A model generated the notes under the pieces. It saw only the letters and a list, made by a program, of their open reading frames with translations. It did not search any database and had not been told where the DNA came from. The translations under genes and the position numbers were made by a program. Shown here piece by piece: positions 1-14,544 of a stretch of DNA of 14,706 nucleotides. The stretch spans positions 1 through 14,706 of the forward strand of contig JAGWLG010000051.1 in NCBI GenBank assembly GCA_028864975.1, given 5' to 3'. Numbering within the stretch: the first letter of the stretch is position 1; each line of letters opens with the position of its first letter. This DNA comes from Thermoplasmata archaeon. Its GTDB lineage: Archaea; Thermoplasmatota; Thermoplasmata; Lutacidiplasmatales; UBA184.

Positions 1-893
1 TTGATTGATAGGCCCCGCATCTCAAAGAGTGAAGCCTGAATCAATGAGTTCAACTCGTGCTCCGTGGATTCGAGATACCTCAGTGAGATCCCCATCTCCA
101 CCGCCCGCTGACACGCGGCGAGAGCGACCAGGTGCAATGAGTCAGTCTCACAAAGAAGTGCTGCCAAAACATTTGTGTCAACGAGGATCGACTCAATCTG
201 GCTGCGCAAATCAATTTCGCCGAACTCCTCCTCACGGGAGAGAACGTCGTAGTTGAGCAAACCCTGGTAGATCTCGACAAAGAGCTCAGAGAGAATCTGA
301 GTCGGGTTGAGCAGGTACTTGCAGAGCGTCTCGCGCAAGGCAGCCCGGTTGCCAAACTTCTTCCCATGTGAGGCAGCGTCGATTACTCTCTCGAGGCTCG
401 CGGACGGCAGGAGTTCCAGTTGCTTCGAGAGTTCCTGCCCACTTGCGGCAATCTCGGAAAAGACTCGAAGCAGTACTTCGTCAAATATGCCCCGGGCGTC
501 GGCATCTGCGAAGTGCTCGTCGAGGTCAGGATATCGTTGTCGTAGTTGCGGAAGGTAGTCCTTCCAAGCGGGTTCAGTGAGTTCGTGGAAACTCGGAAGC
601 TTCGGTCCGTTCTTAAGTTGGAATCGCCCGTTTCCCAGGTCGGAAACGGACCCCGCTTGGACCAGCTTCGCGAGACTCGCAGCGATGGTCGCCTCGCTGA
701 ACGCGAGTCCCGACTCAAGCTTTACCGCCTCCCAAACGTCTGTGGCCTTGAACGATTGTTGGTTCGGTAGCGTGGTAAGAATCTCGTGAACGATGCAGGA
801 CTTGATTGCTTGACGGTGCTCAACCACGGGACGGGATATGAGCGGAGCGAGCCTGATCAACCGATCGAGGTTCCTTGGTGGAGAGTCGGTCAT
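1..893 (-). CDS. Winged-helix + PIN-domain protein, 3'-truncated by window edge (>=297 aa)
   Basis: Manual translation from ATG at 893 (in-frame stop just upstream at 903-905) is open to the left edge: MTDSPPRNLDRLIRLAPL... N-terminal FKATDVWEAVKLESGLAFSEATIAASLAKLVQAGSVSDLGNGRFQL looks like a wHTH. ILVDTNVLAALLCETDSLHLVALAACQRAVEMGISLRYLESTEHEL matches the PIN start (D-T-N, H..A, T..E). Absent from the ORF track because there is no stop in the window. Confidence 0.8.
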   Translation of the reverse strand, partial: MTDSPPRNLDRLIRLAPLISRPVVEHRQAIKSCIVHEILTTLPNQQSFKATDVWEAVKLESGLAFSEATIAASLAKLVQAGSVSDLGNGRFQLKNGPKLPSFHELTEPAWKDYLPQLRQRYPDLDEHFADADARGIFDEVLLRVFSEIAASGQELSKQLELLPSASLERVIDAASHGKKFGNRAALRETLCKYLLNPTQILSELFVEIYQGLLNYDVLSREEEFGEIDLRSQIESILVDTNVLAALLCETDSLHLVALAACQRAVEMGISLRYLESTEHELNSLIQASLFEMRGLSI

Positions 894-996
894 GAGTGGA
901 CCTCAGACCGTGAAAGCTGCGATTGGTCTGATGACCTGCACACGGACGGAAGCGCCCGACACCGTGACGCCCCTCACCCGAGTCCACCCGTCCTCG

Positions 997-1227
997 TCAG
1001 CGGCCTCTGAAGACCAGGTACGCGATGATAGCCAGGATCACCACCGCGATTATCGCAATGAGTATTATCCAAGAATCGCCAGAGAGAAGGGAGTCATTGC
1101 CTTGAGTGATGGATTGATTCGCGCCGGCAATTGAGTAGCTCGCTGCGACAACGGCAACACACAGTATCACTGCCACAATAACGATCCCAAGAACGGTCTC
1201 GCCCTCGATTCCTCGATGATTCTGCAC
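997..1227 (-). CDS. Small 2-TM membrane protein (76 aa)
   Basis: GTG start after GAGAGGGTAA. Two clear hydrophobic helices (VLGIVIVAVILCVAVVAA; WIILIAIIAVVILAIIAYLVF) and a basic tail RGR. Confidence 0.75.
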   Translation of the reverse strand: MQNHRGIEGETVLGIVIVAVILCVAVVAASYSIAGANQSITQGNDSLLSGDSWIILIAIIAVVILAIIAYLVFRGR

Positions 1228-1370
1228 TTACCCTCTCAAGCGGACAAGTTTACCATCATAACAAATCGGACCAAAGTGAGACTTCATGTCTAGCGAAGGG
1301 TTGAGGAACGAGCGGATCGCGCGCGTGTTTCGCGCCCTCAAGGTGACTGGTAGTCGCTGCAAGCAACATT

Positions 1371-1733
1371 TCACCTCGGGGCAAGCAGACGGCGCTCCGA
1401 CACGCTCCGCGACGGATCGATCGTGGCGTCGAGGGCAGAAGCTAGCCCAGGCGCAGTGTCGCCCCGCATCGGCGGAGAGGGAACCTTCAGCCCCTCCACC
1501 CGGAAGAACCCCGCAGGGCCCCCACCCACTCTCTGCGAAGCGGCGGAGCGGATCCGCTCGTCGTGCTCGTCCAGAAGCCGCACGATGAGCGTGTCCATCG
1601 TGTCCCGCATTGACCCCGTGTCGAGGAGCCGCTCGACGGTCGACTCCTGGAGCTTGATCGAACGGCGAATCGATGGCGCCCCCGGGACGGACGCGGGGAA
1701 AACGCCCGACCTTCGTCGCTTCAGGGGCGCCAT
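1371..1733 (-). CDS. Ribbon-helix-helix (archaeal antitoxin/CopG-like) DNA-binding protein, 120 aa
   Basis: From internal ATG 1733 (MAPLKRRR). Core RRSIKLQESTVERLLDTGSMRDTMDTLIVRLLDEH fits the archaeal RHH pattern (T/S-I-K-L...T..RL.......T.D..I.RLL). Flanks are low complexity. Confidence 0.65.
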   Translation of the reverse strand: MAPLKRRRSGVFPASVPGAPSIRRSIKLQESTVERLLDTGSMRDTMDTLIVRLLDEHDERIRSAASQRVGGGPAGFFRVEGLKVPSPPMRGDTAPGLASALDATIDPSRSVSERRLLAPR

Positions 1734-1860
1734 CGCAAAACCAGATAACCAACCGGTTACGGTAGAATACCCGTTGTGGTGCAGTCCTCTACCGGACGTT
1801 CGCGAAGAGTCAAAGGTCCGGACCGCTCCTTGAACGCGTTGCGACCCGCCCGTCTCCGCA

Positions 1861-1875
1861 TGGACACTGTGTCCA
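1861..1875. promoter_or_regulatory. Perfect 7-1-7 palindrome TGGACAC-T-GTGTCCA, candidate operator
   Basis: Read directly. It lies in the divergent intergenic region between the RHH gene and the secreted-protein gene. A related GACA-T-TGTC follows at 1883-1891. Confidence 0.45.
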
Positions 1876-1938
1876 CTCGGTAGACATTGTCCCCTGTACG
1901 GGACCGAATTGATGTAGGATGTCGAGGCTCGTTGGCTC

Positions 1939-2790
1939 ATGCAAGGGGTTCAGGCAGACCGGCCACATTCTGGAGCACGAAGCATTCTCGCCCACGCACG
2001 CCGGTGGCCGTGCTTCCCGGTTCTCCTAGTGCTTGTCTTCTCCGCGTTCGTTGCAGCCTCGCCGGCGGCCCGCGCGGACAACCCCCACACCTGCGGGGGG
2101 ACTGGGAACATCACCGGCCTCTGGTGCGGGGGCGACTTTACGACCACATCCTGGAGCAGTTCCTGGGCAACCCTCGTCACCAACCAGCAGGCGTGTTACA
2201 GCGCGAACTCGAACTCGTACTCTGACAGCGCCTCTGGAGGCTCCTTCTACGGCAAGGCGTCCACTCGGGCCGACGAGTCCTCAAGCTGCGCCACGAACGT
2301 GGGCATCGTCGAGATCAACATCGGGACGCACGGTGGCTCGTTCACGGCGTGGAAGGCGGGAAGCGCCTACTACACGGTGGTGGCGAACTTCACCTTTAGC
2401 GACTTCCTCAGCATTGGCACCTACTGCGCTTCGACCGGGTCGCCCTACACCTCGGCCCAGATCCAGTCCTCCGGTGCAATGTACGACCAGTCCACCGGTT
2501 CCGGCGTCGGCTGGTCGTCATCGGGGGAGGTCTCCAACACCACAATCGAGAACGTCTGCAACACAAGCCAAACCCAGAGAGACAACGCGGCCCTCGTCCA
2601 AGCGTCCTTCTCCACGAACGTTGCGGTGTCCAGCGGAAACGTGCTCACCCCCCGAGGTAGCGTCTGGGCGGAGGTCTACGTGAGCATGCCTGGAGTTTCC
2701 CCGTACCCCGCGGCTCACGCCTACTCAAGCCTCGATTTCAACAACGACGGGTATGGCTACATCACCCTGGATTCAATATGGGTCTACTGA
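1939..2790 (+). CDS. Secreted Ser/Thr/Gly-rich, Cys-containing (glyco)protein, 283 aa
   Basis: Signal peptide RRWPCFPVLLVLVFSAFVAASPAARA|D with an A-x-A cleavage site. The mature part has 6 Cys and N-glycosylation sequons NIT, NFT, NTT, NTS, with beta-strand periodicity and no anchor. Confidence 0.85.
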   Translation: MQGVQADRPHSGARSILAHARRWPCFPVLLVLVFSAFVAASPAARADNPHTCGGTGNITGLWCGGDFTTTSWSSSWATLVTNQQACYSANSNSYSDSASGGSFYGKASTRADESSSCATNVGIVEINIGTHGGSFTAWKAGSAYYTVVANFTFSDFLSIGTYCASTGSPYTSAQIQSSGAMYDQSTGSGVGWSSSGEVSNTTIENVCNTSQTQRDNAALVQASFSTNVAVSSGNVLTPRGSVWAEVYVSMPGVSPYPAAHAYSSLDFNNDGYGYITLDSIWVY

Positions 2791-2841
2791 GGGCCCGTTG
2801 AGTTTTGCACCACAACTGCCTTTTCCTCGAATGCGCATGTC

Positions 2842-3978
2842 TTGACGTTGTCGCCTTCACGCCTTGTCGCCACCAACTCTACCGGGGCTGATTGCTACTC
2901 CATCCTCGTAGGCGTCGCTCTCGCACTACTCATCGGACTTTCAAGCATCGGGTTTTCGTTTGATGTCAGGGACATCGGCCCGGTCCGGAAGGCAGCGGCG
3001 ACTCAAGCAGCAACCCTTTGTGGGGGATACAGGTACTTCACAACTCCCGCGGGGTTGGCCGTTAACGCTAGCGGCTGCCGGCCGAGTTTCGTCGGGTCGT
3101 TCACTCAGGGCGACTCCAATGAGACCCTCGGATTCGCCGTCGCCTCCCTCGCTGAAGTCTCGCGAGCGGGGACAGTTGTTTCGCTTCAGGACCTGTCGGG
3201 TCCCCTTGACTCCGGCTTCACGTCTGTTCAGGGGCCATCGAGCCTTACGTTCACCGATCGCCTGAGCTCAACCGTCTCCAACGCCACCGGCTTCTGGCTC
3301 CCCTCCGACACGGCGTACGGGTCGGGTTCGCAGAAGTTCCACGCAGGGTCCCAAGTCCTCGGGATGGCCTCCGTCACACTGACCTTCTACCTGCGATGGG
3401 GCGGGGCCAACGATTCCTCTCTAAGCTTCGAGCTCAACGAGTCCGGTTGGCCCTGGGTCAGCTCCTCGGACCAGCTCGGAGTGGAGCTCGATTCTACGGC
3501 CGCGACCGGTAGCGAGGTGGCCTACTCCCCGGGCTCAACGACTCTGAGCGAGGCCCAGTCGGGAGGCGGCTCCGTTGAGGCCAACCTCGCCCTAGGACCG
3601 AATGCCGCCACAAGTGGAGGTGCCCCAACCTCTCTCTCGGTCTCGACCCAGGCGGGCATCTTCTCGTCGGGGGCTTCCAACAACTTGGCCGCCATCCTAC
3701 TCACCCTTGGTGGACCCGGGGGCTACGCCGGCTTCTCGTACGGTCCGTCGCTCACCTTCTTCCCCCTCCCCGCCAAAGTCGCCCCCCAGACCCTCGGAAT
3801 CCTCTCGATCGCGGCCATCGGGCTTGTCGTGGTGGCGGCGGTCATCCTCGGCGTCCTGGGCATCCGCGCACGCCGGGTCCCCCCGGAGGCGGACCTCGCT
3901 CCGCTGAACCCTTCGGGCCGAGGGAAGGGCACGGCCCATCGACCCGGGCCAGGTTCCCCCTTCGCGCCTACCTCATGA
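2842..3978 (+). CDS. Membrane-anchored surface glycoprotein, beta-rich ectodomain, 378 aa
   Basis: TTG start (exact start uncertain). N-terminal hydrophobic helix, sequons NAS, NET, NAT, NDS, NES, and a C-terminal TM (ILSIAAIGLVVVAAVILGVLGI) followed by RARR. Confidence 0.85.
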   Translation: MTLSPSRLVATNSTGADCYSILVGVALALLIGLSSIGFSFDVRDIGPVRKAAATQAATLCGGYRYFTTPAGLAVNASGCRPSFVGSFTQGDSNETLGFAVASLAEVSRAGTVVSLQDLSGPLDSGFTSVQGPSSLTFTDRLSSTVSNATGFWLPSDTAYGSGSQKFHAGSQVLGMASVTLTFYLRWGGANDSSLSFELNESGWPWVSSSDQLGVELDSTAATGSEVAYSPGSTTLSEAQSGGGSVEANLALGPNAATSGGAPTSLSVSTQAGIFSSGASNNLAAILLTLGGPGGYAGFSYGPSLTFFPLPAKVAPQTLGILSIAAIGLVVVAAVILGVLGIRARRVPPEADLAPLNPSGRGKGTAHRPGPGSPFAPTS

Positions 3979-4483
3979 GCCCCGCCAGGGTCTCCGAGAT
4001 CTTGCTCGCCCATCGGTCCGTGAACGTTTCGACGAACGACGTGTGGACCCGAAGGATGGTCGCCGCCTGGACGGCTCGATAGACACGGGGACTGACCGAC
4101 GTGTCCTGGATGACCAGCTGCCCCCGCATCAACGCCCTGAGGTGGAAGGAGACCGTGGGGTTCGTCCGATGGACCAGCTCCGCGATCCGACCGAACCGCA
4201 GACCCTCCCCCGAGGCTGCCAGGTAGACAAGGATGGCCCGCTGGACCGGGCTCTGCATGGCCTTCAGGAACCGCCCGTCGACCTCCGGGAAGCCCGGGGG
4301 AAAGTAGTAGTCGCTCCGTCCCCCCTTCTGGCAGACGAGGACCCGCTGCTTGACCAAGCGCCGCAGATGAAACGCGGTCTGGCCCCAGGCGAGGGAGAGG
4401 CCGCGCTGGATGGCTCGAGCGCTCGTCGCGGGGTGGGAGCGGACGAACTCAAGGATCAGTTCGGAGGTTGGGCTCTCCACCAC
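3968..4483 (-). CDS. Tandem winged-HTH transcriptional regulator (COG3398-like), ~171 aa
   Basis: GTG at 4483 (or 4480) after GGAGA. Two HTH repeats: ILEFVRSHPATSARAIQRGLSLAWGQTAFHLRRL and ILVYLAASGEGLRFGRIAELVHRTNPTVSFHLRAL. The first 70 aa of the track ORF are overlap with the upstream gene. Confidence 0.85.
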   Translation of the reverse strand: MVESPTSELILEFVRSHPATSARAIQRGLSLAWGQTAFHLRRLVKQRVLVCQKGGRSDYYFPPGFPEVDGRFLKAMQSPVQRAILVYLAASGEGLRFGRIAELVHRTNPTVSFHLRALMRGQLVIQDTSVSPRVYRAVQAATILRVHTSFVETFTDRWASKISETLAGLMR

Positions 4484-4784
4484 GGGTAACGGTCTCCGAA
4501 AGGGTCGTCGGCGAGCGTGTCGCGACGAAGGAGACGTAGAGGAGCGCCTCCGCGGCGAGGAGGACGAGCGAGGGGGCCCACCCGAGGTCGGCCCAGGGGA
4601 CGGAGCCTCCCTCCACCGCGGAGAGCAGCCCCAGGCCGCCGGCGACCCCCACGAGGCCGATAGCGAGCCCGACCAAAGCGAATCGGAGCTCACGGTAGCG
4701 AGCGGCGGTGTAGAGGGTCATGGCGGCCAACATCGCCCCGACGGCCAGTACGGCGGCGTCGAGAACAGGCAGGAACTGGTCCAT
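4449..4784 (-). CDS. Small 3-TM membrane protein overlapping the wHTH gene start
   Basis: 111 aa with three hydrophobic segments. ATG follows GGGGGACCG. Its 3' end overlaps the regulator start by about 35 bp, suggesting an operon. Confidence 0.8.
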   Translation of the reverse strand: MDQFLPVLDAAVLAVGAMLAAMTLYTAARYRELRFALVGLAIGLVGVAGGLGLLSAVEGGSVPWADLGWAPSLVLLAAEALLYVSFVATRSPTTLSETVTRGGEPNLRTDP

Positions 4785-4985
4785 CGGTCCCCCTAGCCTG
4801 TCGGGTCTGGCTCGGACCTGACAGCGACTCGTCTGCCGAGCATCCCCGGGACGGTCAGGGTCGCATAAGGTTCATGAACGAAGTGGTGCAATTCTCTACT
4901 ACGGTGTTCCTTGGCCGCACTCCGCGACCCTGTCGATGGTCTACGAAGGAGCGACGTCAGGTCGACCTTGTGGGGGACCACCGTT

Positions 4986-5192
4986 CTACCCCCGCCGAAC
5001 CGGCCGCTCGGTCCGCTCGACCGTCACCTTGCCCGTGACGTTGTCCGCGACCCAGTGGACGGCATCACCGGGCTTCAGCTCCATGAACTCGACGATGATC
5101 CTGGGTACGGTCAGTCGGAGCGCCTTCGACCCCTTCAGGCGCGGGGCGGCCCTCACACAGGCGCTGGTCCCTTCGAACGTCCGGGGCGGCAT
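4986..5192 (-). CDS. AbrB/MazE/SpoVT-family DNA-binding protein, 68 aa
   Basis: Motif SKALRLTVPRIIVEFMELKPGDAVHW matches the swapped-hairpin consensus (S...T.P......L.L..GD.V.W). Confidence 0.9.
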   Translation of the reverse strand: MPPRTFEGTSACVRAAPRLKGSKALRLTVPRIIVEFMELKPGDAVHWVADNVTGKVTVERTERPVRRG

Positions 5193-5209
5193 CCCGGGGG
5201 CACCGGCGC

Positions 5210-5255
5210 TCGGGTCTTTTAATGCGTCAGAAGTGAGGTGTTATCTTAGACCCGA
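5210..5255. promoter_or_regulatory. Compact bidirectional promoter framed by 8-bp inverted repeat TCGGGTCT...AGACCCGA
   Basis: IR arms at 5210-5217 and 5248-5255. AT-rich TATA-like elements CTTTTAAT (5216-5223) and TTATCTTA (5241-5248) lie inside. It fills the 65-bp gap between divergent ATGs. Confidence 0.55.
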
Positions 5256-5257
5256 CC

Positions 5258-5446
5258 ATGACGAAGCTCATCTGGGACTTCGAGCGGTGGACCGAGGTGA
5301 AGAGGTCGGGGAAGCGAGAAGTGTGCTGGTTCTGTGAGGCCGGGACTCCCGAGGACTGCCTCGTGGTCCGCGCCTCGGGCCGATTCATCCACGCCTGCCA
5401 TTCCTGCGCGAACCTTCTCCTCGATTGTGGAATCGTCTGCTCGTAA
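5258..5446 (+). CDS. Small zinc-finger protein (CxxC...CxxC), 62 aa
   Basis: ATG start; CWFC and HACHSC pairs. Confidence 0.7.
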   Translation: MTKLIWDFERWTEVKRSGKREVCWFCEAGTPEDCLVVRASGRFIHACHSCANLLLDCGIVCS

Positions 5447-5591
5447 GAAGTCCGGGGCTGGAACCTCCCGGGAGCTTGGCACCAGCGAGCTCTGGGGTGT
5501 GTCCTCCCACCATCGAGCGAGGGCATCGCGCCCTCTGGGCACGGTCCCAGCGAGTCGAGCAGGGTCACGACGAGCCGAGAAGGCTCCCCGC

Positions 5592-6395
5592 TCAGCTCGG
5601 GGCCTTCGGAGCCTTCCCTGAGGGGCTGTCGGGCGTAGGACCAAAGATCGTGTCCGCGATCGACTGGAGCTTGCTGAACGCGTGCTCCGCGAACATCCCG
5701 GTGAGGAAGCAGATCACCGCGATCCCGAGAACGCTCGTGTTCGGCACGCTCGTGCTCGACGAGATGACGCCTGCTCGAAGGGCGACGTAGACCACGAAGG
5801 CCAGCCCCGCCGCGAGAGGGGGCCTCAGGATGTACCAGCCCATCCAGACGAGGTCGAAGTCCTTGAGGGCCGAGTAGTGGTGCGTGATCGCCCACAGCGA
5901 GTAGATGCACGCTCCCACGGCACCCGAAAGGACTGCCACCAGCAGGAGGATCGTCTCAGGACCGACCGCGAAAGGCCCCATCTGCCACAGGAGGAAGCTG
6001 ATCTTCACCTGGCGGGTCGAGGACGCGCTGAGGTCCCCTGGGACCACCGGCCACACGATGCTGAGCAAGTAGGAGAGCGCGAGCAGCATGATCGAGCTGT
6101 AGATGGCGGCCCCTCCCGCGTACCACTCGTCACTCCTGTCCATGACATGCGACTTCTCCAGGACCAGGACGTCGCCCGCTGCGACGTTCAGGTCGGCCAA
6201 CGACTTGGAGAGGTCGAGCGGGGTCGTGTCGCTCCCGAGCCGCCGGAGCGCAAACCGCGCGATCATGGGGAGCTCCTCAGGATAGGTCTTGTCCAGAGTA
6301 TCGGCGACGAGCTTGGACGCTTTCTCCGAGGGGTCGAAGACGTGGGCGGACTTCTTCTTCCAGACCACGAAGACATCGCTCAAGAGGGACACCAC
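5592..6395 (-). CDS. Ubiquitin-like (beta-grasp, YukD/EsaB-like) domain fused to ~4-TM membrane domain, 267 aa
   Basis: Residues ~7-80 align by eye to ubiquitin (VFV..K...DPSE; RFAL..LG; LDLSKSLADLNVAAGDVLVL vs [20 protein letters not shown]). Residues ~91-252 have four TMs with GAVGA, WYILRP and FLTGMF...KL..IADTIF motifs. Confidence 0.8.
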   Translation of the reverse strand: MVSLLSDVFVVWKKKSAHVFDPSEKASKLVADTLDKTYPEELPMIARFALRRLGSDTTPLDLSKSLADLNVAAGDVLVLEKSHVMDRSDEWYAGGAAIYSSIMLLALSYLLSIVWPVVPGDLSASSTRQVKISFLLWQMGPFAVGPETILLLVAVLSGAVGACIYSLWAITHHYSALKDFDLVWMGWYILRPPLAAGLAFVVYVALRAGVISSSTSVPNTSVLGIAVICFLTGMFAEHAFSKLQSIADTIFGPTPDSPSGKAPKAPS

Positions 6396-6478
6396 CGTGT
6401 CGAGACGTTCGCCCTATCCTCCTTCCCGTTCAAGAACGTTGGGAGGCCGCGGAGGTCGAGAGTTGCACCAGCAGAGCT

Positions 6479-7018
6479 TTGGTTGACCGAGAGCCAGGTC
6501 AAGGAAAGCTCTCATGGGAACCTTCCCCTTTCCTCGCTGTCGTGGCCTTCTTCCATCCCACCCACACGCACGGTTTTCCACCGGGCTCCCTCGCCGTCGG
6601 GGAAGAGGTCGTGGCCCATTGGACCGCCCCCTCAGCCCATGACCGGGGCCTCCTCACTTCCCTCCGGGTCCTGCTCCTCTCCGCCCCCCATGCGGTTTCC
6701 CTCCATCGGGAGATCTCGTGGGAGGTCCCGCTGGAGAAGGTCGAAGAGCTCGAGGTGACCCAGCAAGAGAGCTACGACGCCCCTTCCGGCGGGTTTGTCG
6801 TCCCGTGGGGCCTAGGAATGGGCGCAATGCCCGACATGAACATGAACGTAGCCGCCAGGGGCGGGGCCGCCGCCACGACCGAGCGTGTGGAAGGAGACTT
6901 CGGGGTCGTTGTCAACGGCACTATCGTCTTCCTCGGCGACCCCGAGCCCGCTGAGCAGCTTCAGGGGTGGATCGATAAAGCTCGGATGGAGCGACGAGCG
7001 GCGCTGGGCATGCCCTAG
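6479..7018 (+). CDS. Putative PH-like fold protein (start may be GTG 6542)
   Basis: GEEVVAHW...GLLTSLRVLLL...WEVPLEKVEELEV...VVVNGTIVF...AEQLQGWIDKAR resembles prokaryotic PH domains (LT..R.l, IPL..I..v, C-terminal helix). It carries a Gly/Met-rich insertion. Confidence 0.6.
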   Translation: MVDREPGQGKLSWEPSPFLAVVAFFHPTHTHGFPPGSLAVGEEVVAHWTAPSAHDRGLLTSLRVLLLSAPHAVSLHREISWEVPLEKVEELEVTQQESYDAPSGGFVVPWGLGMGAMPDMNMNVAARGGAAATTERVEGDFGVVVNGTIVFLGDPEPAEQLQGWIDKARMERRAALGMP

Positions 7019-7082
7019 GACCCCATGCTACGCTTGGCTGCCGTGTAGGTTCATGATCGCGTCGCGCATTTGGGGGCCTTGG

Positions 7083-7544
7083 TCAGAGCTCCCGGAGAAC
7101 GAGCTCGCGACGATCCTCTCTCACGATCAACTCGTGGTGCATTAGGAACGGGCGACGGCCGAGAAGAGGCGTCGGGACCTCCTCGTCCGCTGCCGCGACC
7201 ATGATCGGGTCCATCACCCAGACGCGACCTGGAAAGCCGAGCGTGTCAGGCCCGACGACCTGCAGGCAGACCCGGGAGGGGCGGATCACGACGGACCCCC
7301 CGACTCCTCGTGCGGGCTCCTGCAGCGGCGCCCCGAGCTCCAGCCCCAGATCCTCGGCGATCCAGGGCGGCAAGAGGGTAAAGGTCGCTCCCGAGTCCAT
7401 CAGGAGGTTCTGAAGCGACTGCTTGCTCTTCCACGTGAGGCGGACATGGACCATGGGGGCCACGTCGGTGTGCCGGGAAATCCGAACCTTCGAGTACTCG
7501 ATACGAAAGACGCCCGACCCCTTCCTACGGGCACGAGCTGTCAA
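7083..7544 (-). CDS. Retropepsin-like (clan AA) aspartic protease, 153 aa
   Basis: Catalytic LLMDSGATFTLLP, flap RGVGG, and psi-loop PLLGR. Confidence 0.9.
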   Translation of the reverse strand: MTARARRKGSGVFRIEYSKVRISRHTDVAPMVHVRLTWKSKQSLQNLLMDSGATFTLLPPWIAEDLGLELGAPLQEPARGVGGSVVIRPSRVCLQVVGPDTLGFPGRVWVMDPIMVAAADEEVPTPLLGRRPFLMHHELIVREDRRELVLREL

Positions 7545-7556
7545 GGGGCTCCCCCC

Positions 7557-7808
7557 TTAGAAGAACTGGACTTCGCCGGCGGGTACGTGAAGCATGCTGG
7601 GCTCCAGGCCCCTAGAGCGGGTCCGGCCCTCCGCGAGGACCCTCCTCGGGTCCGTCCCCGCCGCCACGATCTTCCGGTTCACGATGGCCACCCACTCCCC
7701 TGGGTGCTTCCCCAGCTCCCTTGGAGATGGCAGGTGGGAAGGCTGGTGCCACCGACGCGCTCGCGGGGTCATGGATCTTCTTGTCCGTTCCATCTCCTGC
7801 CCGTTCAT
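7557..7808 (-). CDS. DUF5678-domain protein
   Basis: KHPGEWVAIVNRKIVAAGTDPRRVL matches the DUF5678 pattern (KY.G.WVAI....IVA.G). The track start at 7856 is inside the IS end, so the likely start is ATG 7808 (GGAGGT upstream), or 7793/7772. Confidence 0.8.
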   Translation of the reverse strand: MNGQEMERTRRSMTPRARRWHQPSHLPSPRELGKHPGEWVAIVNRKIVAAGTDPRRVLAEGRTRSRGLEPSMLHVPAGEVQFF

Positions 7809-7849
7809 ATCGGTTCGCTCGACCTCCTTCCATGACTTGAGGATGCCGA

Positions 7850-7901
7850 TGTACAACGTCGTAGAATTCTAGGCCGATTCTCGTCGCGAATCGTACGCCA
7901 C
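7850..7901. repeat. IS21 end downstream of istB: two transposase-binding repeats
   Basis: 7850-7875 and TTCTCGTCGCGAATCGTACGCCAC (7878-7901) are inverted copies of the repeats at 10198-10296. Confidence 0.9.
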
Positions 7902-7965
7902 CCCGAAGGCAGCTCCTTGTCTCCTCACCTCCTTGATACCTGACGGCCGACGCTCTACTTACCCT

Positions 7966-8910
7966 TCACGCTCGAGCTTGCAGTGGCGCCAGGGGGGAGG
8001 GGGTCGGCAGTCCGCTCTTCCTCCGTGACCTCAGCCGGTAGCTCTCTCCCTTGATGCTGACGACCGTCGCATGGTGCAGGATCCGGTCCAGCGTCGCCGC
8101 GGCGATCGCCGTGTCCCCCATCACCTCGCCCCACTCCGCGAAACTCTTGTTCGAGGTGAACACCGTCGAGCCCTTCTCGTAGCGGGCGTTGATCAGTTGG
8201 AAGAACAGGTGCGCTCCCACCCTCTCCATCGGGAGGTAGCCGATCTCGTCGACGATGAGCACCCCGTACTTCGCGTACAACCGGAGCTTGCTGTCGAGGC
8301 GATCCACCTCCGCCCCTCGGCGGAGGTCTTCGACGAGACGGGGTGCACTCACGAAGAAGACGGAGAACCCCGCTCGGAGCGCCTCCCACCCTAGCGCCAC
8401 GGCCAGATGCGTTTTTCCGACCCCCGGGGGCCCGAGCAGCAGGACGTTGGCGTGGTCGTGCACGAACCGGAGCGTCCGGAGTTCCTCGAGGACTTTCGGG
8501 TCGATCGAGGGTTGAGCCGCGAGGTCGAACTCCTCGAGGGTCTTCCTCACCGGGATCTTCGAGAACTGCAGACGGAGCTGCAGCGAGAGCGCATCCCTCG
8601 CCTTCACTTCCTCCTGGAGGAGGTGGTCCAGGATCTCCGTCACGCTCTGCTCGTCCACCCCCGGGCCCTGGAGGTAGCCATCGAGCTGGGCCTCCACGGT
8701 CTTGAGGCCGACGCCGAGCAAGTTCGCGTGGAGCCGCTCGTAGGCGAGATGGCCGTCTCCGAAGGGGTGTGCGCCGGGAACCGGCGCACGGAAACGGTCC
8801 TCCTGGCTCTCCGGAGCGATCGGCGAAGGGTCCAGGACCTTCCCTCGCTCGAGGGAAGGGGTGGTCGTCGCGGGGCGGGTGGCGCGTCGTTCGGGCTCTC
8901 TCTTTCTCAT
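7966..8910 (-). CDS. istB: IS21 helper AAA+ ATPase IstB, 314 aa
   Basis: Walker A GPPGVGKT, Walker B LIVDEIGY, TSNK, LDRILHH. ATGA overlap with the istA stop. Confidence 0.97.
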   Translation of the reverse strand: MRKREPERRATRPATTTPSLERGKVLDPSPIAPESQEDRFRAPVPGAHPFGDGHLAYERLHANLLGVGLKTVEAQLDGYLQGPGVDEQSVTEILDHLLQEEVKARDALSLQLRLQFSKIPVRKTLEEFDLAAQPSIDPKVLEELRTLRFVHDHANVLLLGPPGVGKTHLAVALGWEALRAGFSVFFVSAPRLVEDLRRGAEVDRLDSKLRLYAKYGVLIVDEIGYLPMERVGAHLFFQLINARYEKGSTVFTSNKSFAEWGEVMGDTAIAAATLDRILHHATVVSIKGESYRLRSRRKSGLPTPSPLAPLQARA

Positions 8911-10163
8911 GGGTTCTCCTGGGTGGCTTGGTCGTAGACCGAGAGGTCCCGCTGTTCCACCCGCGGGACCTCAGGGAACGACTGGAACGACTCCAGGCGC
9001 GCCTGGCGCACCGGAGGCTTCTGGCGGATGGCGGCGAGGAGACCGGCCCGGTGGCCTTCGGTCTGGACTACATGGCCGGTGCCGGGGCGACGGGTGTGGC
9101 GACAGATCTCCACGCCGTCGACCTCGACAACGAACCCGTCGTCGGTGAGGCGAAGGGTCGCTTCGCGACCCGCATGCTTCCACGGTACCGAGTACCGGTT
9201 CCTCTCGAAGTCGACGTAACAGTCGCGGCTGATCTTGCGACGGACGGTCCGGACGATGGGATAGGGAGCTCGCCCCGCCACCGGGGTGAGCTGCTCCTCC
9301 TCCAGACGGTCGATGGGCGCGATGTGCGTGGTGCCGTGGGGTCGCTGATTGATCCGGTTACACCAGCGGAGGGCCTCGAGGTTCACTTCCTGCAGCGAGG
9401 AGAAGTGCTGTCCGTCGAAGAACCCCTGGCGGACGACGCGGACGCTCCGCTCGACCTTGCCCTTGGTCTGGGCTCGGTACGGTGCGCACAAGCGCACCGT
9501 CAGACCGTAGTAGGCGGCGAAGTCCAGGAAGGTCTTGTTGAACTCGCTGTCCGCGGCGAGGAAGGCCCGGGCCAGCACCACGTTCTTGGTGTTGTCGTAG
9601 AGGGCCTCTCGCGGGAACCCTCCGAAGTAGTCGAAGGCGTGGAGGTGACACTGGATGAACGTTGCCGTGGAGAGATCGGTGACGAACTCGACGTAGCGAC
9701 CTCGGGAGTATCCGAGCGTCATGATGAAGGCGGCCAGCCGTCGGCGTTTCCCGTCCTCGTCGATCCAGCCGAAGAACGCCCAGTCGACCTGGGCTTGCTG
9801 GCCCGGGAGGGTCTCGAAGCGGTAGACCGCGAGGGGGAGACGAGCGGCTCGCAAGGGGCGTAGGGCACGCAGGAGCGTGGAGTAGCTCCCGGTGAACCCA
9901 CGACCACGAACCTCGTCCAGGAGGCGGGTGGTGGTGAGGGTGGGGAACTCGTCCAGTCTACCTTTGAGGTAGTCCAGGAAGGGGAGGAGCAGCTCCGGAT
10001 CGGAGGCGCGTGCCCGGTAGACCGGAGCCCGCGGACAGGCGAGGTACTTCAGGACCGTGGTACGGTTGAACCCGGTGCGTTTGGCGATGGCGCGGGCCGA
10101 GAGGCCCTGGTCGTGCAGGTGGCGGATGTAGGCCCAGTCTTCCATGTGCAGCAAGGCTACCAC
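8907..10163 (-). CDS. istA: IS21 DDE transposase IstA, ~418 aa (start may be TTG 10154)
   Basis: N-terminal HTH (GLSARAIAKRTGFNRTTVLKYL), RFETLPGQQAQVDW (D), LYDN (D), QTKGKVER (E), NQRPHGTT. Confidence 0.97.
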   Translation of the reverse strand: MVALLHMEDWAYIRHLHDQGLSARAIAKRTGFNRTTVLKYLACPRAPVYRARASDPELLLPFLDYLKGRLDEFPTLTTTRLLDEVRGRGFTGSYSTLLRALRPLRAARLPLAVYRFETLPGQQAQVDWAFFGWIDEDGKRRRLAAFIMTLGYSRGRYVEFVTDLSTATFIQCHLHAFDYFGGFPREALYDNTKNVVLARAFLAADSEFNKTFLDFAAYYGLTVRLCAPYRAQTKGKVERSVRVVRQGFFDGQHFSSLQEVNLEALRWCNRINQRPHGTTHIAPIDRLEEEQLTPVAGRAPYPIVRTVRRKISRDCYVDFERNRYSVPWKHAGREATLRLTDDGFVVEVDGVEICRHTRRPGTGHVVQTEGHRAGLLAAIRQKPPVRQARLESFQSFPEVPRVEQRDLSVYDQATQENP

Positions 10164-10197
10164 TCCCCCGAGGGGGTTCGGGGGAGAGGCGGGAGGG

Positions 10198-10296
10198 GTG
10201 GCGTACTTTTCGCGACGAAAAGTGGCCCACTTTTCGCGACGAAGACTGGCGTACTTCCTACGACGATAGATGGCCTAGTTTTCGCGACGTTCTACA
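10198..10296. repeat. IS21 end upstream of istA: four tandem 24-bp repeats (consensus gTGGCgtACTTTTCGCGACGaa) ending in CA
   Basis: Copies start at 10198, 10222, 10246 and 10270, giving exact 24-bp periodicity. Confidence 0.93.
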
Positions 10297-10385
10297 CCGA
10301 GAACCAGAGCGTGCCTGGGTGCGAGGTGCAAGCCTGGGTGGAGGGGGCCCCTCCCGCCCGGGTCGCTATTGAGGAGTCTCGGCTT

Positions 10386-10714
10386 TCATCCCAGTCGCCC
10401 GCAACCCCACAAGAGGAGCATGAACCCCACGAGGCATGGAGGGGCAACGAAGAGCAGGTAGGGCTCGGTCAGGTCGCAAGACCCAGAAACGAGGAGGCAG
10501 GTGAACGACGTGGCCACCAGCGCCGCGAACAGTACCAGCACCACGCCCCCAACAATGGCCATCCACCCGACCGCGCGTCGGTTCTCCCGCTCGACCTTAG
10601 CCGTACCGTCGCGAGTGGACGGTGATCTGAGCGAGAGCAAGGCCCCGCACGCTGCGCACCTGTCAGAAGGTCCGAAGTTGGCCTGGCCGCAGCTAAGCAC
10701 ACTCGGAGGGCCAT
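10386..10714 (-). pseudogene. Zinc-ribbon + 2-TM membrane protein with a 1-nt frameshift
   Basis: ATG 10714 gives MALRVC. One base is missing at ~10695-10696, after which the adjacent frame gives SCGQANFGPSDRCAACG and two TM helices. Restoring one base completes CxxC...CxxC. Confidence 0.65.
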
Positions 10715-10823
10715 TGGGATCCCATGGCCGAGCGGCGAGATGAACCCCGCGCCGGCCCCTGCGGCCGCCATTGCCCGGCAAGAAGAATGACCACCACGAG
10801 GGCGACCGCGCGAGGGGTGTCCA

Positions 10824-11333
10824 TCAGGGGAAGATCGCGACGGTCACCCCGCTCCTCTTGCAGAACGCGCTGATCGCGTTGAGAGCGATGTGGACGTCCT
10901 GATGGTTCGAAGCGACGCCATCGATGAGCACCAGCATGGGTTTGTCTCCGGGGCGGTGAACGATCCTCTCCGTGAGGCGCACGGGAAGGCAGACGTAGCC
11001 GAACGCCGCGGCGAGGAGCGGCGCATCTCCCAGGATCTCGGGAAAGGCCTCCCGGCAGCGCCTCCCGAGCTGTCCCAACGGGGGCAGCCGCCAGTCCTGC
11101 ATCCTCAGCGCCCGCCCTCCCATCTGGAGAAGAGCACGGATGTCGGCCAGCCGCTCGTCCGACCCCAGGTAGTGCACCTCGGCGTTCATCCGGAGCGCCT
11201 CCGTTGCGACCTCGATCAAGAGCGAGGCGTCGTGCATCCTCTTGGAGGGTCGTCCCGAGAGCTCCTCCAGGATGGAAAGGTCCCGTCCCGGCGGCGCCTG
11301 GACGCTCGTGCCTGAGAGTACCGCGCTCTCCAT
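10824..11333 (-). CDS. RecA/KaiC-like fold protein with degenerate Walker A, 169 aa
   Basis: ATG 11333 after GAGGAGG. Motif order LEELSGRP / ATEALRMNAEVHYLGSDE / MLVLIDGV / LNAISAFCKRSGVTVAIF parallels KaiC/RadB (l.G.pgsGKT / a......v.Yis.Ee / lvviDsi / l..l.k..gvtv). Confidence 0.6.
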   Translation of the reverse strand: MESAVLSGTSVQAPPGRDLSILEELSGRPSKRMHDASLLIEVATEALRMNAEVHYLGSDERLADIRALLQMGGRALRMQDWRLPPLGQLGRRCREAFPEILGDAPLLAAAFGYVCLPVRLTERIVHRPGDKPMLVLIDGVASNHQDVHIALNAISAFCKRSGVTVAIFP

Positions 11334-11367
11334 CCCGCTCGCCCTCCTCGTGTCGGAGCCGCGATGT

Positions 11368-11559
11368 TCACGCCAGCACGTTGGAACACGCCGGGCAAAC
11401 ACGCGCCTCGGGTCCGACTGGAGTGGAACAGACCGCACAGGTGACGAGGTCCTCCTCGAACGCGACCCCGCATGCAGGGCAGAAGGGAACGGCGAGGGGA
11501 GCGGCCGTCAGGCAGAGCGGGCAGTGGGCCCACTCGACCTCGTCCGACTCGGCGGGCAT
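11368..11559 (-). CDS. Double zinc ribbon (DZR) protein, 63 aa (alternative start 11604)
   Basis: Four CxxC motifs: CPLC, CPAC, CAVC, CPAC. Confidence 0.8.
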   Translation of the reverse strand: MPAESDEVEWAHCPLCLTAAPLAVPFCPACGVAFEEDLVTCAVCSTPVGPEARVCPACSNVLA

Positions 11560-11699
11560 GTTCGGGCTCGGCAGGATCGCTTGGGTTTCGGGGGTGGCCA
11601 ACATGAGGGCCACTTCGGGCCCAGGGGGGATGAAGCCGCAGTTCAGGAACGGAACCTGAGGGGGGTGGCCGGACGCGTCCAAGAACTTGTGGGGCAACC

Positions 11700-11947
11700 G
11701 AGGTTCGGGGGGCGGCATTCGGGAACCCCGTGGGCATCAGGTCCAGATCCACGCTCAAGCGGGGAGCCTTCGGCCAGTGGAAGACGTTGAGCGCGGTCCC
11801 TCCCTTCAGGGTGAACTTGTCGCGAGTGGCGACGCGCGCCTGGAGCTCGCGGAGGAGCCCCAGGAGACGCCAGACCTTCTCCGCGGTCGCCTGCGGGAAG
11901 CCCTCGCTGAGCGCCTTCGAGAGGTCCTCCGAGCCTACTTCGACCAC
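11700..11947 (-). pseudogene. abiEii: Truncated AbiEii-family nucleotidyltransferase toxin (N-terminal ~80 codons only)
   Basis: FTLKGGTALNVFH...RLSVDLDL is the AbiEii GGTA/DxD signature. After about residue 80 the frame becomes Pro/Arg-rich sequence overlapping the DZR and KaiC-like genes. GTG start overlaps the abiEi end. Confidence 0.85.
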
Positions 11948-12744
11948 CTACGCACCTCTGGGTATACGACCCTGAAGCGACGGTCATAGCGGTTGGACGG
12001 AGCGCGAGGCCGCGTTCCCAGGTACTTCGGACTTGACCGAGCCACCGCTCGCTCGAGGTCGGAAAGCACCGGTTCGAAGCCCCGGAGCTTCGGCGGGTCG
12101 CCCACCGCTCGAGCGAGGAAGTGGCCGAGCCGGGCGAGGGCCGCCGTGTTGCTCACCCCTCGGGCCGCGCGGGAGAGGTCGACCGGGTCGACACGGGGAA
12201 GGAGACTCCTGAACGCCTCGAAGGTCCCCTCGTAGTCCTGCTCGGGCCCGGAGAGGCCAGCCAGGTCCACGAGGGTCTGCGCGGGGGTGGTCACGAGCAA
12301 AGTCGCCCCTCCTCGCCGCACCCTCCGGGTGACGCCTTCCCAGGCGTGGGCGGGTGAAGCATGGACCCGAAGGGAGGTCTCCCCGACGGTGCGGCGGCGC
12401 GGGCGCACTCCGCGGGCCTCCACGTGGATCACGTTGCGGACCTGCTGCTCGGCTCCTAAGAGCGCCAGTGCGCTGAAGTGACTGAAGACGTAACGCTCGC
12501 CCAGGGCACGATGGACGGCGAGGAATGGGTCGGGGTGGAACCCCCTGGGCTCAACATCAAGCGGGACCGCCGCGTACACGCCTCGCTGGACCGCCTTGAG
12601 GAAGCCGCGAGCCCGGAGGTCGAACGCCGTCTTCGCAGCGTTCCTGGGGGAGACCCCGAGGACACGAGCGAGGTCCCGTGTGGTCAGGACACGGCCCCGG
12701 GCCACCTTGAGGAGGGTCTCACGATTTACTCTCCTACGCTCCAT
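11935..12744 (-). CDS. abiEi: Type IV toxin-antitoxin antitoxin, AbiEi family, 269 aa
   Basis: N-terminal wHTH ending VQRGVY, then YVFSHFSALALLG, VTTPAQTLVD and ARLGHFL. It overlaps the abiEii start. Confidence 0.9.
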   Translation of the reverse strand: MERRRVNRETLLKVARGRVLTTRDLARVLGVSPRNAAKTAFDLRARGFLKAVQRGVYAAVPLDVEPRGFHPDPFLAVHRALGERYVFSHFSALALLGAEQQVRNVIHVEARGVRPRRRTVGETSLRVHASPAHAWEGVTRRVRRGGATLLVTTPAQTLVDLAGLSGPEQDYEGTFEAFRSLLPRVDPVDLSRAARGVSNTAALARLGHFLARAVGDPPKLRGFEPVLSDLERAVARSSPKYLGTRPRAPSNRYDRRFRVVYPEVRRWSK

Positions 12745-12751
12745 GCTGATT

Positions 12752-12785
12752 CTATCATATGGAATCTATGTGGAGTATATGATAG
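12752..12785. promoter_or_regulatory. abiE promoter inverted repeat CTATCATAT-N16-ATATGATAG
   Basis: Perfect 9-bp IR in an AT-rich patch 8-41 bp upstream of the abiEi ATG. Confidence 0.7.
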
Positions 12786-13009
12786 CGATGGGCCACCCGT
12801 ACCCGGACGACTCCAGGGCAGGGCGGTCCTGCACCGCGGTTTCGAGGAATCGGAGGCGGCGGGCGGGCGCTCACCTTCGGAAGGAATGGAAGGCTGCCCT
12901 GAGCCCTTCGCGGTCAGCTTCATCTCACGGGGCCTCGAGGGGCCTTCGGCAGGTCCCGCGGCGGGGAGCGCGTGCAGATGCTCGACCGGACCCCACGAGG
13001 TCTCCGCGC

Positions 13010-13465
13010 TCAGCTTACGGCCTTCTTCAGCAGCGCCGCGATCCGCGCCTCTTCCGCTGCGGTCATCTGCATCAACGCAAAGCTGGTGGGCCACATCTGC
13101 CCCTCGTCGAGCTTCGCCTCGTTGCCGAACCCCAGGGTCCCGTAGCGCGCCTTGAACTTGCTCGCCGGCTGGAAGAAGCAGAGCACGTCCCCGCCCTTGG
13201 AGTACGCGGGCATCCCGTACCAGAGCCTAGGGGAGAGCTCGGGCGCGGTCGACGTGATGACCGCGTGAAGGCGCTTGGCGATCGAGCGATCCGGTTCCGG
13301 GAACTCAGCGATCTTGGCGAGCACCGCCCTCTCGTCCTTCTCCCGGTCCTTCCCCCATACGATCTTCTGCTCTCGAACGGCCTCCCGCATCGCGGACCGC
13401 TCTTCGTCGGAGAATCCCGAGGACCTCTTACCGGACCGGTCGCTCGGCTTCTTCGCGGCTGGCAT
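13010..13465 (-). CDS. DUF1801 (YdhG-like) domain protein, 151 aa
   Basis: GFSDEERSAM...LAKIAEFPEPDR...PRLWYGMPAY...CFFQPASKFKARYGTLGF...MWPTSFAL is the typical family sequence. ATG 13465 has a TATA-like CTTCTTATG about 25 bp upstream. Confidence 0.9.
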   Translation of the reverse strand: MPAAKKPSDRSGKRSSGFSDEERSAMREAVREQKIVWGKDREKDERAVLAKIAEFPEPDRSIAKRLHAVITSTAPELSPRLWYGMPAYSKGGDVLCFFQPASKFKARYGTLGFGNEAKLDEGQMWPTSFALMQMTAAEEARIAALLKKAVS

Positions 13466-13563
13466 GGCCCGGCCCACGAACTCAGACATAAGAAGGTCAG
13501 CTCGGACCTCCACCGCTTGGGCGAGGTCCCGGTACGATTCGCCCTGGTCACGCGAGACCCGGC

Positions 13564-14544
13564 TCACCCGCTACCGGGCGCCGCCGGGTCCACCGACCTC
13601 TCGATCTCGGCAAGACGGAGCCGGTTCTCTTGCCCGAGGACCTTCATCAGTCCCTCCCGACGGATGCGCCGGAGGACCTCCCGAACCTCCGTCGCCGCAC
13701 CTCTACGGCGGGCGAGCTCCGCCTCGACGACCAGCGCCTGAGCGACGAAGTAGCGAACTCCGCCCTTCTCCCCGGCCGCCTTCAGCTCGTCGAGAGCCCT
13801 GCTCGCCTCCTCCCATCGGCCCTGGCCCATGGCGATGGAGGCCTCCAGGAGACGAAGCTGCAGTCGATCGACGTGGGTCTCAGGTACGTGCGACCCCCCC
13901 CGGTCGACGAACTTCCGCAGTTCTTGGGCGAGCTCCTCCGCCCTGGCGTACGCCCCCGCGCCACAGGCGTACTCCCCGACGTTGCCCAAGATCATCATCA
14001 AGCTCGATCGGGCCCCGGTCCTTCGGGCCTCCCTCAGCGCCTCCTCCCCCCGCTCAAGGGCGGCCGGGTATCGCCTCCGGTTGAACTCGACCTCGGCGAG
14101 GGTCGCGAGGAGCTCGACCACGATCGTCTGATGAGGAGTCCCGACCACGCGATCGCGATGCTCCAGCGCCCCGAGCAAGTGCTGTCGAGCCTTCTCCGGG
14201 TCCTCTCCCGCAAGCAGGTAGGCGCCGGCCACGTCCAGATGGCAGCGCATCCTCAGCGAGAGGTTCTTCCCCCGGTCGGCGAGGGCGCAGGCCCGCTCCC
14301 CCATCTCCAGGGCTTCCGCAGAACGGCCGCGGGTGCTGAGGAGTCCGCAGTAAGCCCGCAGGAGCGCCGCCTCCTCGTCCCGGAACTTTCCCCGGGCCTC
14401 CCCCAGCGCCCGCTTGAGCTCCTCCTCGGGGTCATGCCCCAAGTTCACCTCCGCCACCGCGATCAGGGCCACGTAGGGAAGCCGCTCCCTCCTCGGCGCG
14501 CCGCGGGCCTCGGAGATCGCGTAGGCGCGTCGGAGGGCTTGCAC
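13564..14544 (-). CDS. TPR-repeat (MalT-like superhelical) protein, 326 aa, possibly 5'-truncated
   Basis: All-helical repeats (GRSAEALEMGERACALA, RRYPAALERGEEALREA, GAYARAEELAQE, GRWEEASRALDE). TPR-like sequence continues upstream of the GTG to a TAG at 14566-14568. Confidence 0.75.
   Translation of the reverse strand: MQALRRAYAISEARGAPRRERLPYVALIAVAEVNLGHDPEEELKRALGEARGKFRDEEAALLRAYCGLLSTRGRSAEALEMGERACALADRGKNLSLRMRCHLDVAGAYLLAGEDPEKARQHLLGALEHRDRVVGTPHQTIVVELLATLAEVEFNRRRYPAALERGEEALREARRTGARSSLMMILGNVGEYACGAGAYARAEELAQELRKFVDRGGSHVPETHVDRLQLRLLEASIAMGQGRWEEASRALDELKAAGEKGGVRYFVAQALVVEAELARRRGAATEVREVLRRIRREGLMKVLGQENRLRLAEIERSVDPAAPGSG

Follow-up and report, generated by a model that had tools for sequence, protein, structure and literature searches.

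What can a ubiquitin-like domain do when it is fixed to a membrane protein and cannot be released from it? This question is raised by a gene on contig JAGWLG010000051.1 of a Thermoplasmata archaeon (assembly GCA_028864975.1), of which positions 1 to 14,706 were analysed; this whole stretch of 14,706 nucleotides is referred to below as the window. The gene corresponds to a minus-strand open reading frame (ORF) at 5592-6395. It is predicted to encode a ubiquitin-like domain (Ubl) followed by four transmembrane helices (TM1 to TM4) and is called the Ubl-4TM gene here. The original prediction for this locus described a non-conjugatable Ubl adaptor that recruits an AAA ATPase or a protease to a membrane complex or channel. 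As far as prediction allows, the fusion can be regarded as established, real but rare (about a dozen clusters), whereas everything past the architecture is something that we infer.

An AlphaFold2 model of the whole protein, computed from a 113-row alignment in which only 11-12 rows cover the N-terminal domain, has a predicted local distance difference test score (pLDDT) of 91.6 and a predicted template modelling score (pTM) of 0.82. In this model residues ~5-82 are directly predicted to form a ubiquitin-fold beta-grasp, non-conjugatable and fused to the membrane core (strands and helices in Table 1). The predicted domain can be superposed on the free protein YukD/EsaB (PDB 2bps), and its Foldseek comparison with the Ubl of EccD1 gave a template modelling score (TM-score) of 0.54 by target. 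The beta-grasp of conjugatable modifiers (ubiquitin, PF00240; SAMP/ThiS/MoaD) is likewise recognizable in the model, its shape being nearer to ubiquitin and the Ubls of shuttle factors (ubiquilin/hPLIC-2, Rad23, Dsk2, UBX of PUX5) than to ThiS/MoaD. A single-sequence AlphaFold2 run resulted in an all-helical model with a pLDDT of 44, which was discarded and is a caveat to the N-domain model.

A profile of 11 N-domains compared with the PDB retrieved ubiquitin-fold chains only (Ubl of At2g30105, expectation value (E) 2.5e-3; di-ubiquitin, 3e-3; EccD1, 0.027) and aligns with ubiquitin in register from strand 1 through strand 5. The single domain from the window matches YukD (PF08817) at residues 43-79 only, with 19.7 bits (E 0.0015) and, in a genome-wide search, 21.9 bits, both below the gathering cut-off of 27. 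Weak YukD matches recur in four independent members (E 0.0015-0.06, of which 0.02-0.06 in independent homologues; 14.5-15.8 bits in P0004, P0010 and P0036), and the N-domains of homologues also match UBL_UBAC1 (E 0.007) and ubiquitin (E 0.2) weakly. An apparently significant match to polyubiquitin (E 4e-7) was rejected, as it is the sum of nine repeats with 6 bits each. Since ubiquitin and a single N-domain score only 6-8 bits per domain, the homology is argued from the predicted structure.

In an alignment of 10 homologues no conserved Gly-Gly (GG) was detected; the AGG at residues 93-95 belongs to the beginning of TM1, and most homologues lack it. Neither a free C-terminus ending in GG nor a processing site that would expose one, as found in conjugatable modifiers, is present. 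Since the chain enters TM1 unbroken and without a Gly-Gly tail, the Ubl cannot be released or conjugated in the manner of ubiquitin or a SAMP. The host genome contains no second copy of the N-domain and no match to ubiquitin (PF00240). A ubiquitin-conjugating enzyme (UQ_con, E2) was not matched either, but the control search was positive in 0 of 14 control genomes and thus had no power. A word-indexed search with the N-domain profile returned no free-standing relative, although this method is insensitive at such divergence and the result is no proof of absence.

Hydropathy indicates four membrane segments (~93-115, 146-170, 186-208 and 219-240), and the AlphaFold2 model agrees (helices 87-114, 146-176, 182-210 and 222-251), with the pLDDT dropping to 55 in the C-terminal tail. 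An exhaustive HMMER search yielded 2649 cluster representatives (50% identity) at E<=1e-3, 576 of them at E<=1e-10. Nearly all of these matches are confined to residues ~90-260, and E values down to 6e-53 for non-trivial relatives make the core a clear family member. Residues ~87-251 are therefore directly predicted as the four-helix core of a large, unnamed and mostly bacterial family, which is often annotated as 'IPT/TIG domain-containing protein' or 'hypothetical protein'. Its signature reads WP...G..G...WYxLRP..G..LA...Y...R.G...G.F...KL. The signature residues are 87-100% conserved in the 113 rows, and all are present in the window protein (W115, P116, G161, W187, Y188, R191, A199, Y203, R207, G209, G233, F235, K242, L243 and F251). 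Conservation is particularly dense in TM3, with W187 at 90%, Y188 at 99%, R191 at 88%, G195 at 91%, A199 at 98%, Y203 at 96% and R207 at 96%.

For this membrane core neither Pfam nor NCBIfam has a model, and a profile of the whole family found nothing at E<=1 among the PDB sequences. Structural matches in the atlas of protein clusters were members of the core family only (TM-score 0.51-0.55 by query). These look-alikes belong to unnamed or TIG-labelled clusters, mostly from Actinomycetota, Chloroflexota and Pseudomonadota, and the feature searches of the atlas returned unnamed clusters with no usable named one among them. The label 'YeaQ/YmgE (transglycosylase-associated)', which the JGI (Joint Genome Institute) gives to some relatives, was dropped because no Transgly_assoc match appeared even at E<=5. 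Single weak matches to LapA_dom, YLATT, PycTM, MIP and CrcB were isolated and below the cut-offs, and are considered noise.

The soluble parts attached to this core vary. Most relatives have a short N-terminal tail and, after the core, either nothing or ~90-200 residues of immunoglobulin (Ig)-like domains; stand-alone core proteins of ~190 residues also exist. Among 150 relatives we found IPT/TIG in 23, He_PIG in 3, PKD in 1 and the CoaZ repeat in 42, in every case C-terminal of the core. In these 42 (P0038, P0071, P0072 and 39 others) the 'choice-of-anchor Z' repeat (NF058597, CoaZ_rpt_PGGG) follows directly after the core and maps to the C-terminal extension, not to the core itself. A Ubl is borne by about a dozen clusters at 50% identity only, namely P0003, P0004, P0006, P0008, P0010, P0013, P0014, P0036, P0075, P0153 and P0154. 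Full-length homologues of the window protein were found at 78% and 41% identity. A word-indexed search, which is insensitive at this divergence, returned one non-identical full-length relative only, and a search with a 5-row alignment gave 4 loci, all core-only.

A quick maximum-likelihood analysis of the core yielded a tree that has to be regarded as provisional. In this tree, the Ubl-bearing members fall into two separate clades (support 95 and 99), interleaved with members that carry other heads or none, and the well-supported branches require at least 4 gains or losses. Thus, Ubl and core were paired, or maintained as a pair, more than once, and the soluble parts appear to be interchangeable. 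The original prediction is borne out in its description of the protein: the N-terminal domain models as a beta-grasp, the GG is missing, hydropathy and model agree on four TMs, and the membrane family is uncharacterized and often fused to Ig-like domains. Its suspicion that the fusion had not been described also holds, as the architecture is covered by no curated family and no published account of it turned up in a literature search. Iyer, Burroughs and Aravind (2006, PMC1779556) describe only the actinobacterial fusion of YukD to 12 TMs.

The side of the membrane on which the Ubl lies can be estimated from charges and glycosylation motifs. The family means for lysine plus arginine are 1.28 in the N-terminal flank, 1.88 in the 11 residues of loop 2 and 4.10 in the C-terminal flank, compared with 1.61 in the 28-residue loop 1 and 0.12 in loop 3. 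Among the Ubl-bearing members (n = 12), loops 1 and 3 contain 20 N-x-S/T sequons, and loop 2 and the C-terminal flank together contain 3. A loop 1 sequon occupies one aligned position in 9 of these 12 members; it is absent there in the window protein, which carries N217-T-S in loop 3. Since archaeal N-glycosylation takes place on the outer face, the sequon counts fit a topology with both termini inside. No signal peptide was found on the protein. On the basis of charge bias, sequons and the missing signal peptide, the Ubl is quite probably cytoplasmic. The C-terminal tail would then be cytoplasmic as well, with loops 1 and 3 pointing outward. With both termini inside, the Ig-like domains of the relatives (TIG, PKD and CoaZ) would lie in the cytoplasm, too.

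Four copies of residues 85-262 were folded with the family alignment, and three soluble, unrelated, natural proteins served as controls. The core scored 0.54, past the binding mark, while the best of the 3 controls scored 0.00. In the calibration stated for the tool, 20 of 30 proteins whose solved structures are pairs of one chain attained this mark, as did 1 of 23 proteins whose solved structures are single chains. Different runs share at least 88% of the contacts, and the pLDDT of the partner is at least 68. The scored copy contacts two neighbours via different faces, one consisting of residues 147-151, TM3 (186-210) and the C-terminal helix (236-255), the other of TM1 (97-115), TM2 (157-171) and TM4 (221-242). 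The least expected error is found at pairs such as 161-197 and 235-247. This predicted geometry is that of a head-to-tail cyclic oligomer whose interface contains the invariant glycines. Self-assembly of the core as a ring is thereby supported, but not shown.

We favour a joint reading of these results, to which we assign a probability of about 0.5. The core would assemble head-to-tail into a ring-like homo-oligomer, in which TM3 and the C-terminal helix pack on TM1, TM2 and TM4 of the neighbour via the invariant small residues G161, G195/A199 and G233. This ring would do the actual work, serving as a small channel or as a platform in the membrane, to which interchangeable soluble heads were added by different lineages, mostly C-terminal Ig-like repeats and in about a dozen clusters a Ubl. 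The Ubl may act like the YukD-like domain of EccD, as a fixed module for protein-protein docking or self-association at the cytoplasmic side of the ring rather than as a modifier, and may either couple a cytoplasmic partner to the ring or regulate it. With respect to the original prediction, the non-conjugatable Ubl on a four-TM domain stands, and its 'membrane complex or channel' gains some support from the predicted homo-oligomer.

Several points weigh against this joint reading. The N-domain model depends on the few alignment rows mentioned above, and its per-domain scores with ubiquitin are low. In the Foldseek and VIA-align comparisons the Ubl filled the lists, so that the match to solved structures effectively covers the Ubl and not the core. 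The oligomer score expresses the confidence of the model itself and was obtained in a job unlike those of the calibration (four copies, custom alignment), and the soluble controls leave the general tendency of hydrophobic helices to pack together uncontrolled. Cytoplasmic Ig-like domains, which the topology implies for the relatives, would be unusual for such domains, and the N-terminal tails of some CoaZ-bearing members are without positive charge. The CoaZ-bearing members have either another topology or intracellular Ig domains. Finally, no partner of the Ubl was identified, and its function is what we infer from the architecture.

The ORF at 5592-6395, on which the original prediction was made, is a real gene. 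Its longest reading comprises 267 codons and a stop, and begins with GTG 6395 directly after an in-frame TAG. The public gene call (P0002, 263 residues) begins four codons later with TTG 6383; this agrees with homologue P0003 (78% identity), which starts with ATG (MSDVY...), and TTG 6383 is likely the true start. The G+C content at third codon positions is 0.89 in this ORF versus 0.64-0.65 in the overlapping ORFs 5682-6758 (+) and 5227-5910 (-), which identifies the former as the coding frame. The host genome (3.6 Mb in 124 contigs, 89.6% complete) is archaeal by its small-subunit ribosomal RNA, for which the archaeal model gives 1488 bits. In two studies, metagenome runs from mine drainage and soil contain the gene sequence again; no RNA data set was listed among the runs. 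Positions 1-3000 of the window have a G+C content of 0.56-0.62 versus 0.64-0.70 in the remainder, which suggests a composition boundary within the contig, and the window contains no transfer RNA gene that would mark an integration site. The features of the gene and its surroundings are listed in Table 1.

Table 1. Parts of the Ubl-4TM gene and other genes of the window, with window coordinates.
Feature	Position	Strand	Remarks
Whole Ubl-4TM gene	5592-6395	-	longest ORF 267 codons plus stop; likely true start TTG 6383, giving 263 residues
Ubiquitin-like beta-grasp domain, residues 5-82	6150-6383	-	predicted strands b1 7-12, b2 14-19, b3 48-52, b5 76-81; helix a1 26-37, extra helix 39-47
Short charged linker, residues 83-92	6120-6149	-	SHVMDRSDEW...; leads straight into TM1; from sequence and alignment of 10 homologues
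TM1, residues 93-115	6051-6119	-	ends in conserved W115-P116 (94% and 87% in 113 rows); hydropathy, model helix 87-114
Loop 1, residues 116-145	5961-6050	-	variable; small beta-hairpin (model strands 128-130, 142-144); low in Lys and Arg; predicted outside
TM2, residues 146-172	5880-5960	-	E147, G158, invariant G161; G161 in predicted subunit interface
Loop 2, residues 173-184	5844-5879	-	short, rich in Lys and Arg; H173, D179, W184; predicted cytoplasmic
TM3, residues 185-208	5772-5843	-	family signature WYxLRPxxGxxLA...Y...R; one face of predicted interface
Loop 3, residues 209-221	5733-5771	-	almost no Lys or Arg; N-T-S sequon (N217); predicted outside
TM4, residues 222-240	5676-5732	-	G224, invariant G233, F235; from hydropathy, model and interface residues
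C-terminal amphipathic helix to ~251, then Pro/Ser/Lys-rich tail	5595-5675	-	K242, L243, D248, F251 conserved; model helix 236-251
Double winged-helix regulator	3968-4693	-	HTH_HVO_0163_N plus ArsR-type HTH; downstream of Ubl-4TM gene
'PH-like' unannotated ORF	6479-7018	+	upstream, opposite strand
Retropepsin-like aspartyl protease gene	7083-7544	-	Asp_protease_2, E 1.3e-6; 690 bp upstream, same strand
DUF5678 gene	7557-7856	-	E 1.5e-10; directly upstream of retropepsin gene
Complete IS21 element	7966-10163	-	IstA 8907-10163 (NF033546, E 1e-81); IstB helper ATPase 7966-8910 (E 5e-78)
AbiEii-like nucleotidyltransferase toxin	11216-11947	-	match covers only first ~40 residues of Pfam model
AbiEi-like antitoxin	11935-12744	-	overlaps AbiEii-like gene

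Neighbourhoods were compared on the translated level between the window and 10 other loci with a homologue. These 11 loci have no neighbour in common and share nothing but the gene itself or its homologue. The genes beside the homologues vary and include tRNA synthetases, PIN-MazE pairs, transposases and a terminase. The Ubl-4TM gene thus stands alone, within a variable region next to IS21 and toxin-antitoxin genes, and does not belong to an operon-encoded machine. A small ORF (4449-4784, minus strand) with a hydrophobic product overlaps the 5' end of the winged-helix regulator gene. The 'PH-like' ORF has no Pfam match, and its product does not resemble the protein with a weak bPH_5 match that is encoded upstream of homologue P0004. 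KaiC-like genes near two homologues (L002 and L016) were rejected as an association because they are abundant in archaea and the copy in the window lies beyond IS21. On two independent contigs (L016:8827-9624 and L017:4466-5263, both plus strand) a gene for a protein of 265 residues starts 14 nucleotides after the Ubl-4TM gene. It may be a lineage-specific operon partner in the P0010 lineage; it has no Pfam match and no counterpart in the window.

These surroundings allow for a membrane-permeabilizing effector of mobile DNA, either toxin-like or an exclusion module, with the predicted ring as the pore and the Ubl as a regulatory or sensing head. The spread of the gene is patchy, as it occurs in 2 of 401 searched genomes of the phylum and in 0 of 9 of the same family. 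In the window, IS21, the AbiEi/AbiEii pair and the DUF5678-retropepsin pair lie nearby, and elsewhere L016 has PIN-MazE and a terminase beside the homologue, L021 an IS240 transposase, and L011 a vWA protein and a Cas4-like nuclease. Several loci, however, are in housekeeping surroundings (L002, L022), and no cognate sensor or immunity gene is conserved in the 11 loci. Moreover, PADLOC-DB 2.0 has no family matching the protein, and the 150 relatives gave only scattered single matches (E 0.002-0.004), none of them meaningful. We consider such an effector unlikely, but still a fair rival to the joint reading in view of the patchy spread and the island-like surroundings. The contig of L011, from a Candidatus Bathyarchaeia, is a case of its own: at 5860-8310 a stand-alone core of 194 residues is convergent with a protein of 601 residues that has a C-terminal vWA-like segment. 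With the ORF of the Cas4-like nuclease, a tetratricopeptide repeat protein and a large HEAT-repeat protein nearby, this region looks like a defence island, these labels having been given by reading the sequences and not by profile matches.

The second alternative takes up the recruiting function of the original prediction. Here, the Ubl would be a handle of the ubiquitin or UBX type by which an AAA+ unfoldase (Cdc48/VAT, PAN) or a protease is brought to the membrane, and the protein would be an archaeal counterpart of quality-control adaptors like HERP and TMUB1. The ubiquitin-like shape described above and the predicted cytoplasmic position of the Ubl would suit this role. So would F48, which takes the position of ubiquitin I44 and is conserved in 83% of the Ubl-bearing members. 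However, F48 is the only hydrophobic equivalent within the I44 patch, the positions of L8 and V70 being Lys or variable and Glu, respectively, in the profile alignment. In addition, an AAA ATPase or protease gene is not a conserved neighbour in the 11 loci, and the same core works without a Ubl in most lineages. Recruitment of this kind is thus quite doubtful. An extension that combines it with the ring is conceivable, yet we regard it as a long shot. The core would be a new kind of ring-forming channel or platform. In a few lineages of archaea it would have acquired a genuine domain of the ubiquitin type, which hands the ring or its clients to a cytoplasmic unfoldase or protease (Cdc48/VAT, PAN-proteasome). 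If this were true, ring and Ubl would represent a prokaryotic precursor or an analogue of those Ubl adaptors that are membrane-bound in eukaryotic endoplasmic reticulum quality control.

A third possibility is that the core is an anchor for surface display with both termini directed outward, and that the Ubl serves in adhesion or wall contact. The relatives do carry domain types that are usual on cell surfaces (CoaZ in 42 of 150, PKD, TIG and He_PIG), a Thr-rich linker precedes the PKD domain in P0036, and the uncharged N-terminal tails would be in line with an outward position. Against this, both the positive-inside rule and the sequon counts favour inward termini, and a folded N-domain of 85 residues would need to cross the membrane unaided, there being no signal peptide. 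A mere anchor would also neither keep invariant Gly, Arg and Trp residues nor occur as a stand-alone protein of ~190 residues. Hence, an extracellular Ubl seems improbable.

Two further proposals have very little in their favour. A split Ddi1-like module for membrane proteolysis, formed by the Ubl and the retropepsin encoded on the same strand, is largely refuted by lack of conservation: in none of the 10 other loci is the gene accompanied by a retropepsin, a DUF5678 gene or a 'PH-like' homologue, and Ubl and retropepsin occur neither in one protein nor as a conserved pair. In the window the two genes lie 690 bp apart with an ORF on the opposite strand between them, and the retropepsin gene is paired with DUF5678 instead. 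DUF5678 and the retropepsin gene (7083-7856, minus strand) resemble a two-gene cassette of their own adjoining IS21. Equally remote is a miniature EccD in an archaeal secretion system of the type VII kind: in its favour are the arrangement shared with EccD, in which a membrane domain follows a YukD-like Ubl, weak matches to YukD (E 0.0015) and EccD (E 0.0023) and an EccD row in the atlas (TM-score 0.46 by query), but membership in EccD (TIGR03920) was dropped with a score of 16.8 bits versus a cut-off of 94.95, restricted to residues 46-82, and with 4 helices instead of 11. WXG100 has no match in the 89.6% complete genome, FtsK_SpoIIIE (FtsK/EccC) matches there only below the cut-off, and neither the window nor the 10 homologous loci, which share no neighbour, contain type VII secretion genes.

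The fusion draws attention to a membrane family of more than 2600 clusters at 50% identity without a Pfam or NCBIfam model and with a predicted ring interface on invariant glycines. A partner of the Ubl, if found, would provide the first functional handle on this whole family. Should this partner be an AAA+ unfoldase, recruitment via a ubiquitin fold would take place at a prokaryotic membrane without conjugation machinery.

Within its own family the window protein differs from most members, which are without an N-terminal Ubl and have TIG, PKD, He_PIG or CoaZ repeats or nothing at the C-terminus. Archaeal SAMPs, ThiS and MoaD share with it a beta-grasp in an archaeon. In contrast to the window Ubl, however, they are small free proteins that end in GG and are activated by E1, whereas the window Ubl has no free C-terminus and finds its nearest structures among those of the ubiquitin type, so that its predicted shape is closer to ubiquitin proper than to archaeal modifiers of the ThiS/MoaD type. 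From ubiquitin and from integral Ubls, both those of ubiquilin, Rad23 and Dsk2 and the membrane-bound ones of HERP and TMUB1, it is distinguished by the missing GG tail and by the non-hydrophobic positions of L8 and V70. The membrane part of HERP and TMUB1 is unrelated to that of the window protein, whose host is an archaeon. The EccD protein of mycobacterial type VII systems (Pfam YukD plus EccD) has 11-12 helices, while the window protein has four and no detectable similarity in the membrane part; furthermore, its gene stands alone in an archaeal host in which no WXG100 or EccC was found. To our knowledge, ubiquitin-fold domains that are fixed to a membrane and non-conjugatable have been described in very few cases, namely EccD in type VII secretion and HERP/TMUB1 in eukaryotes. 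The predicted protein from the window would represent a third, unrelated setting of a membrane-fixed Ubl, this time in archaea.

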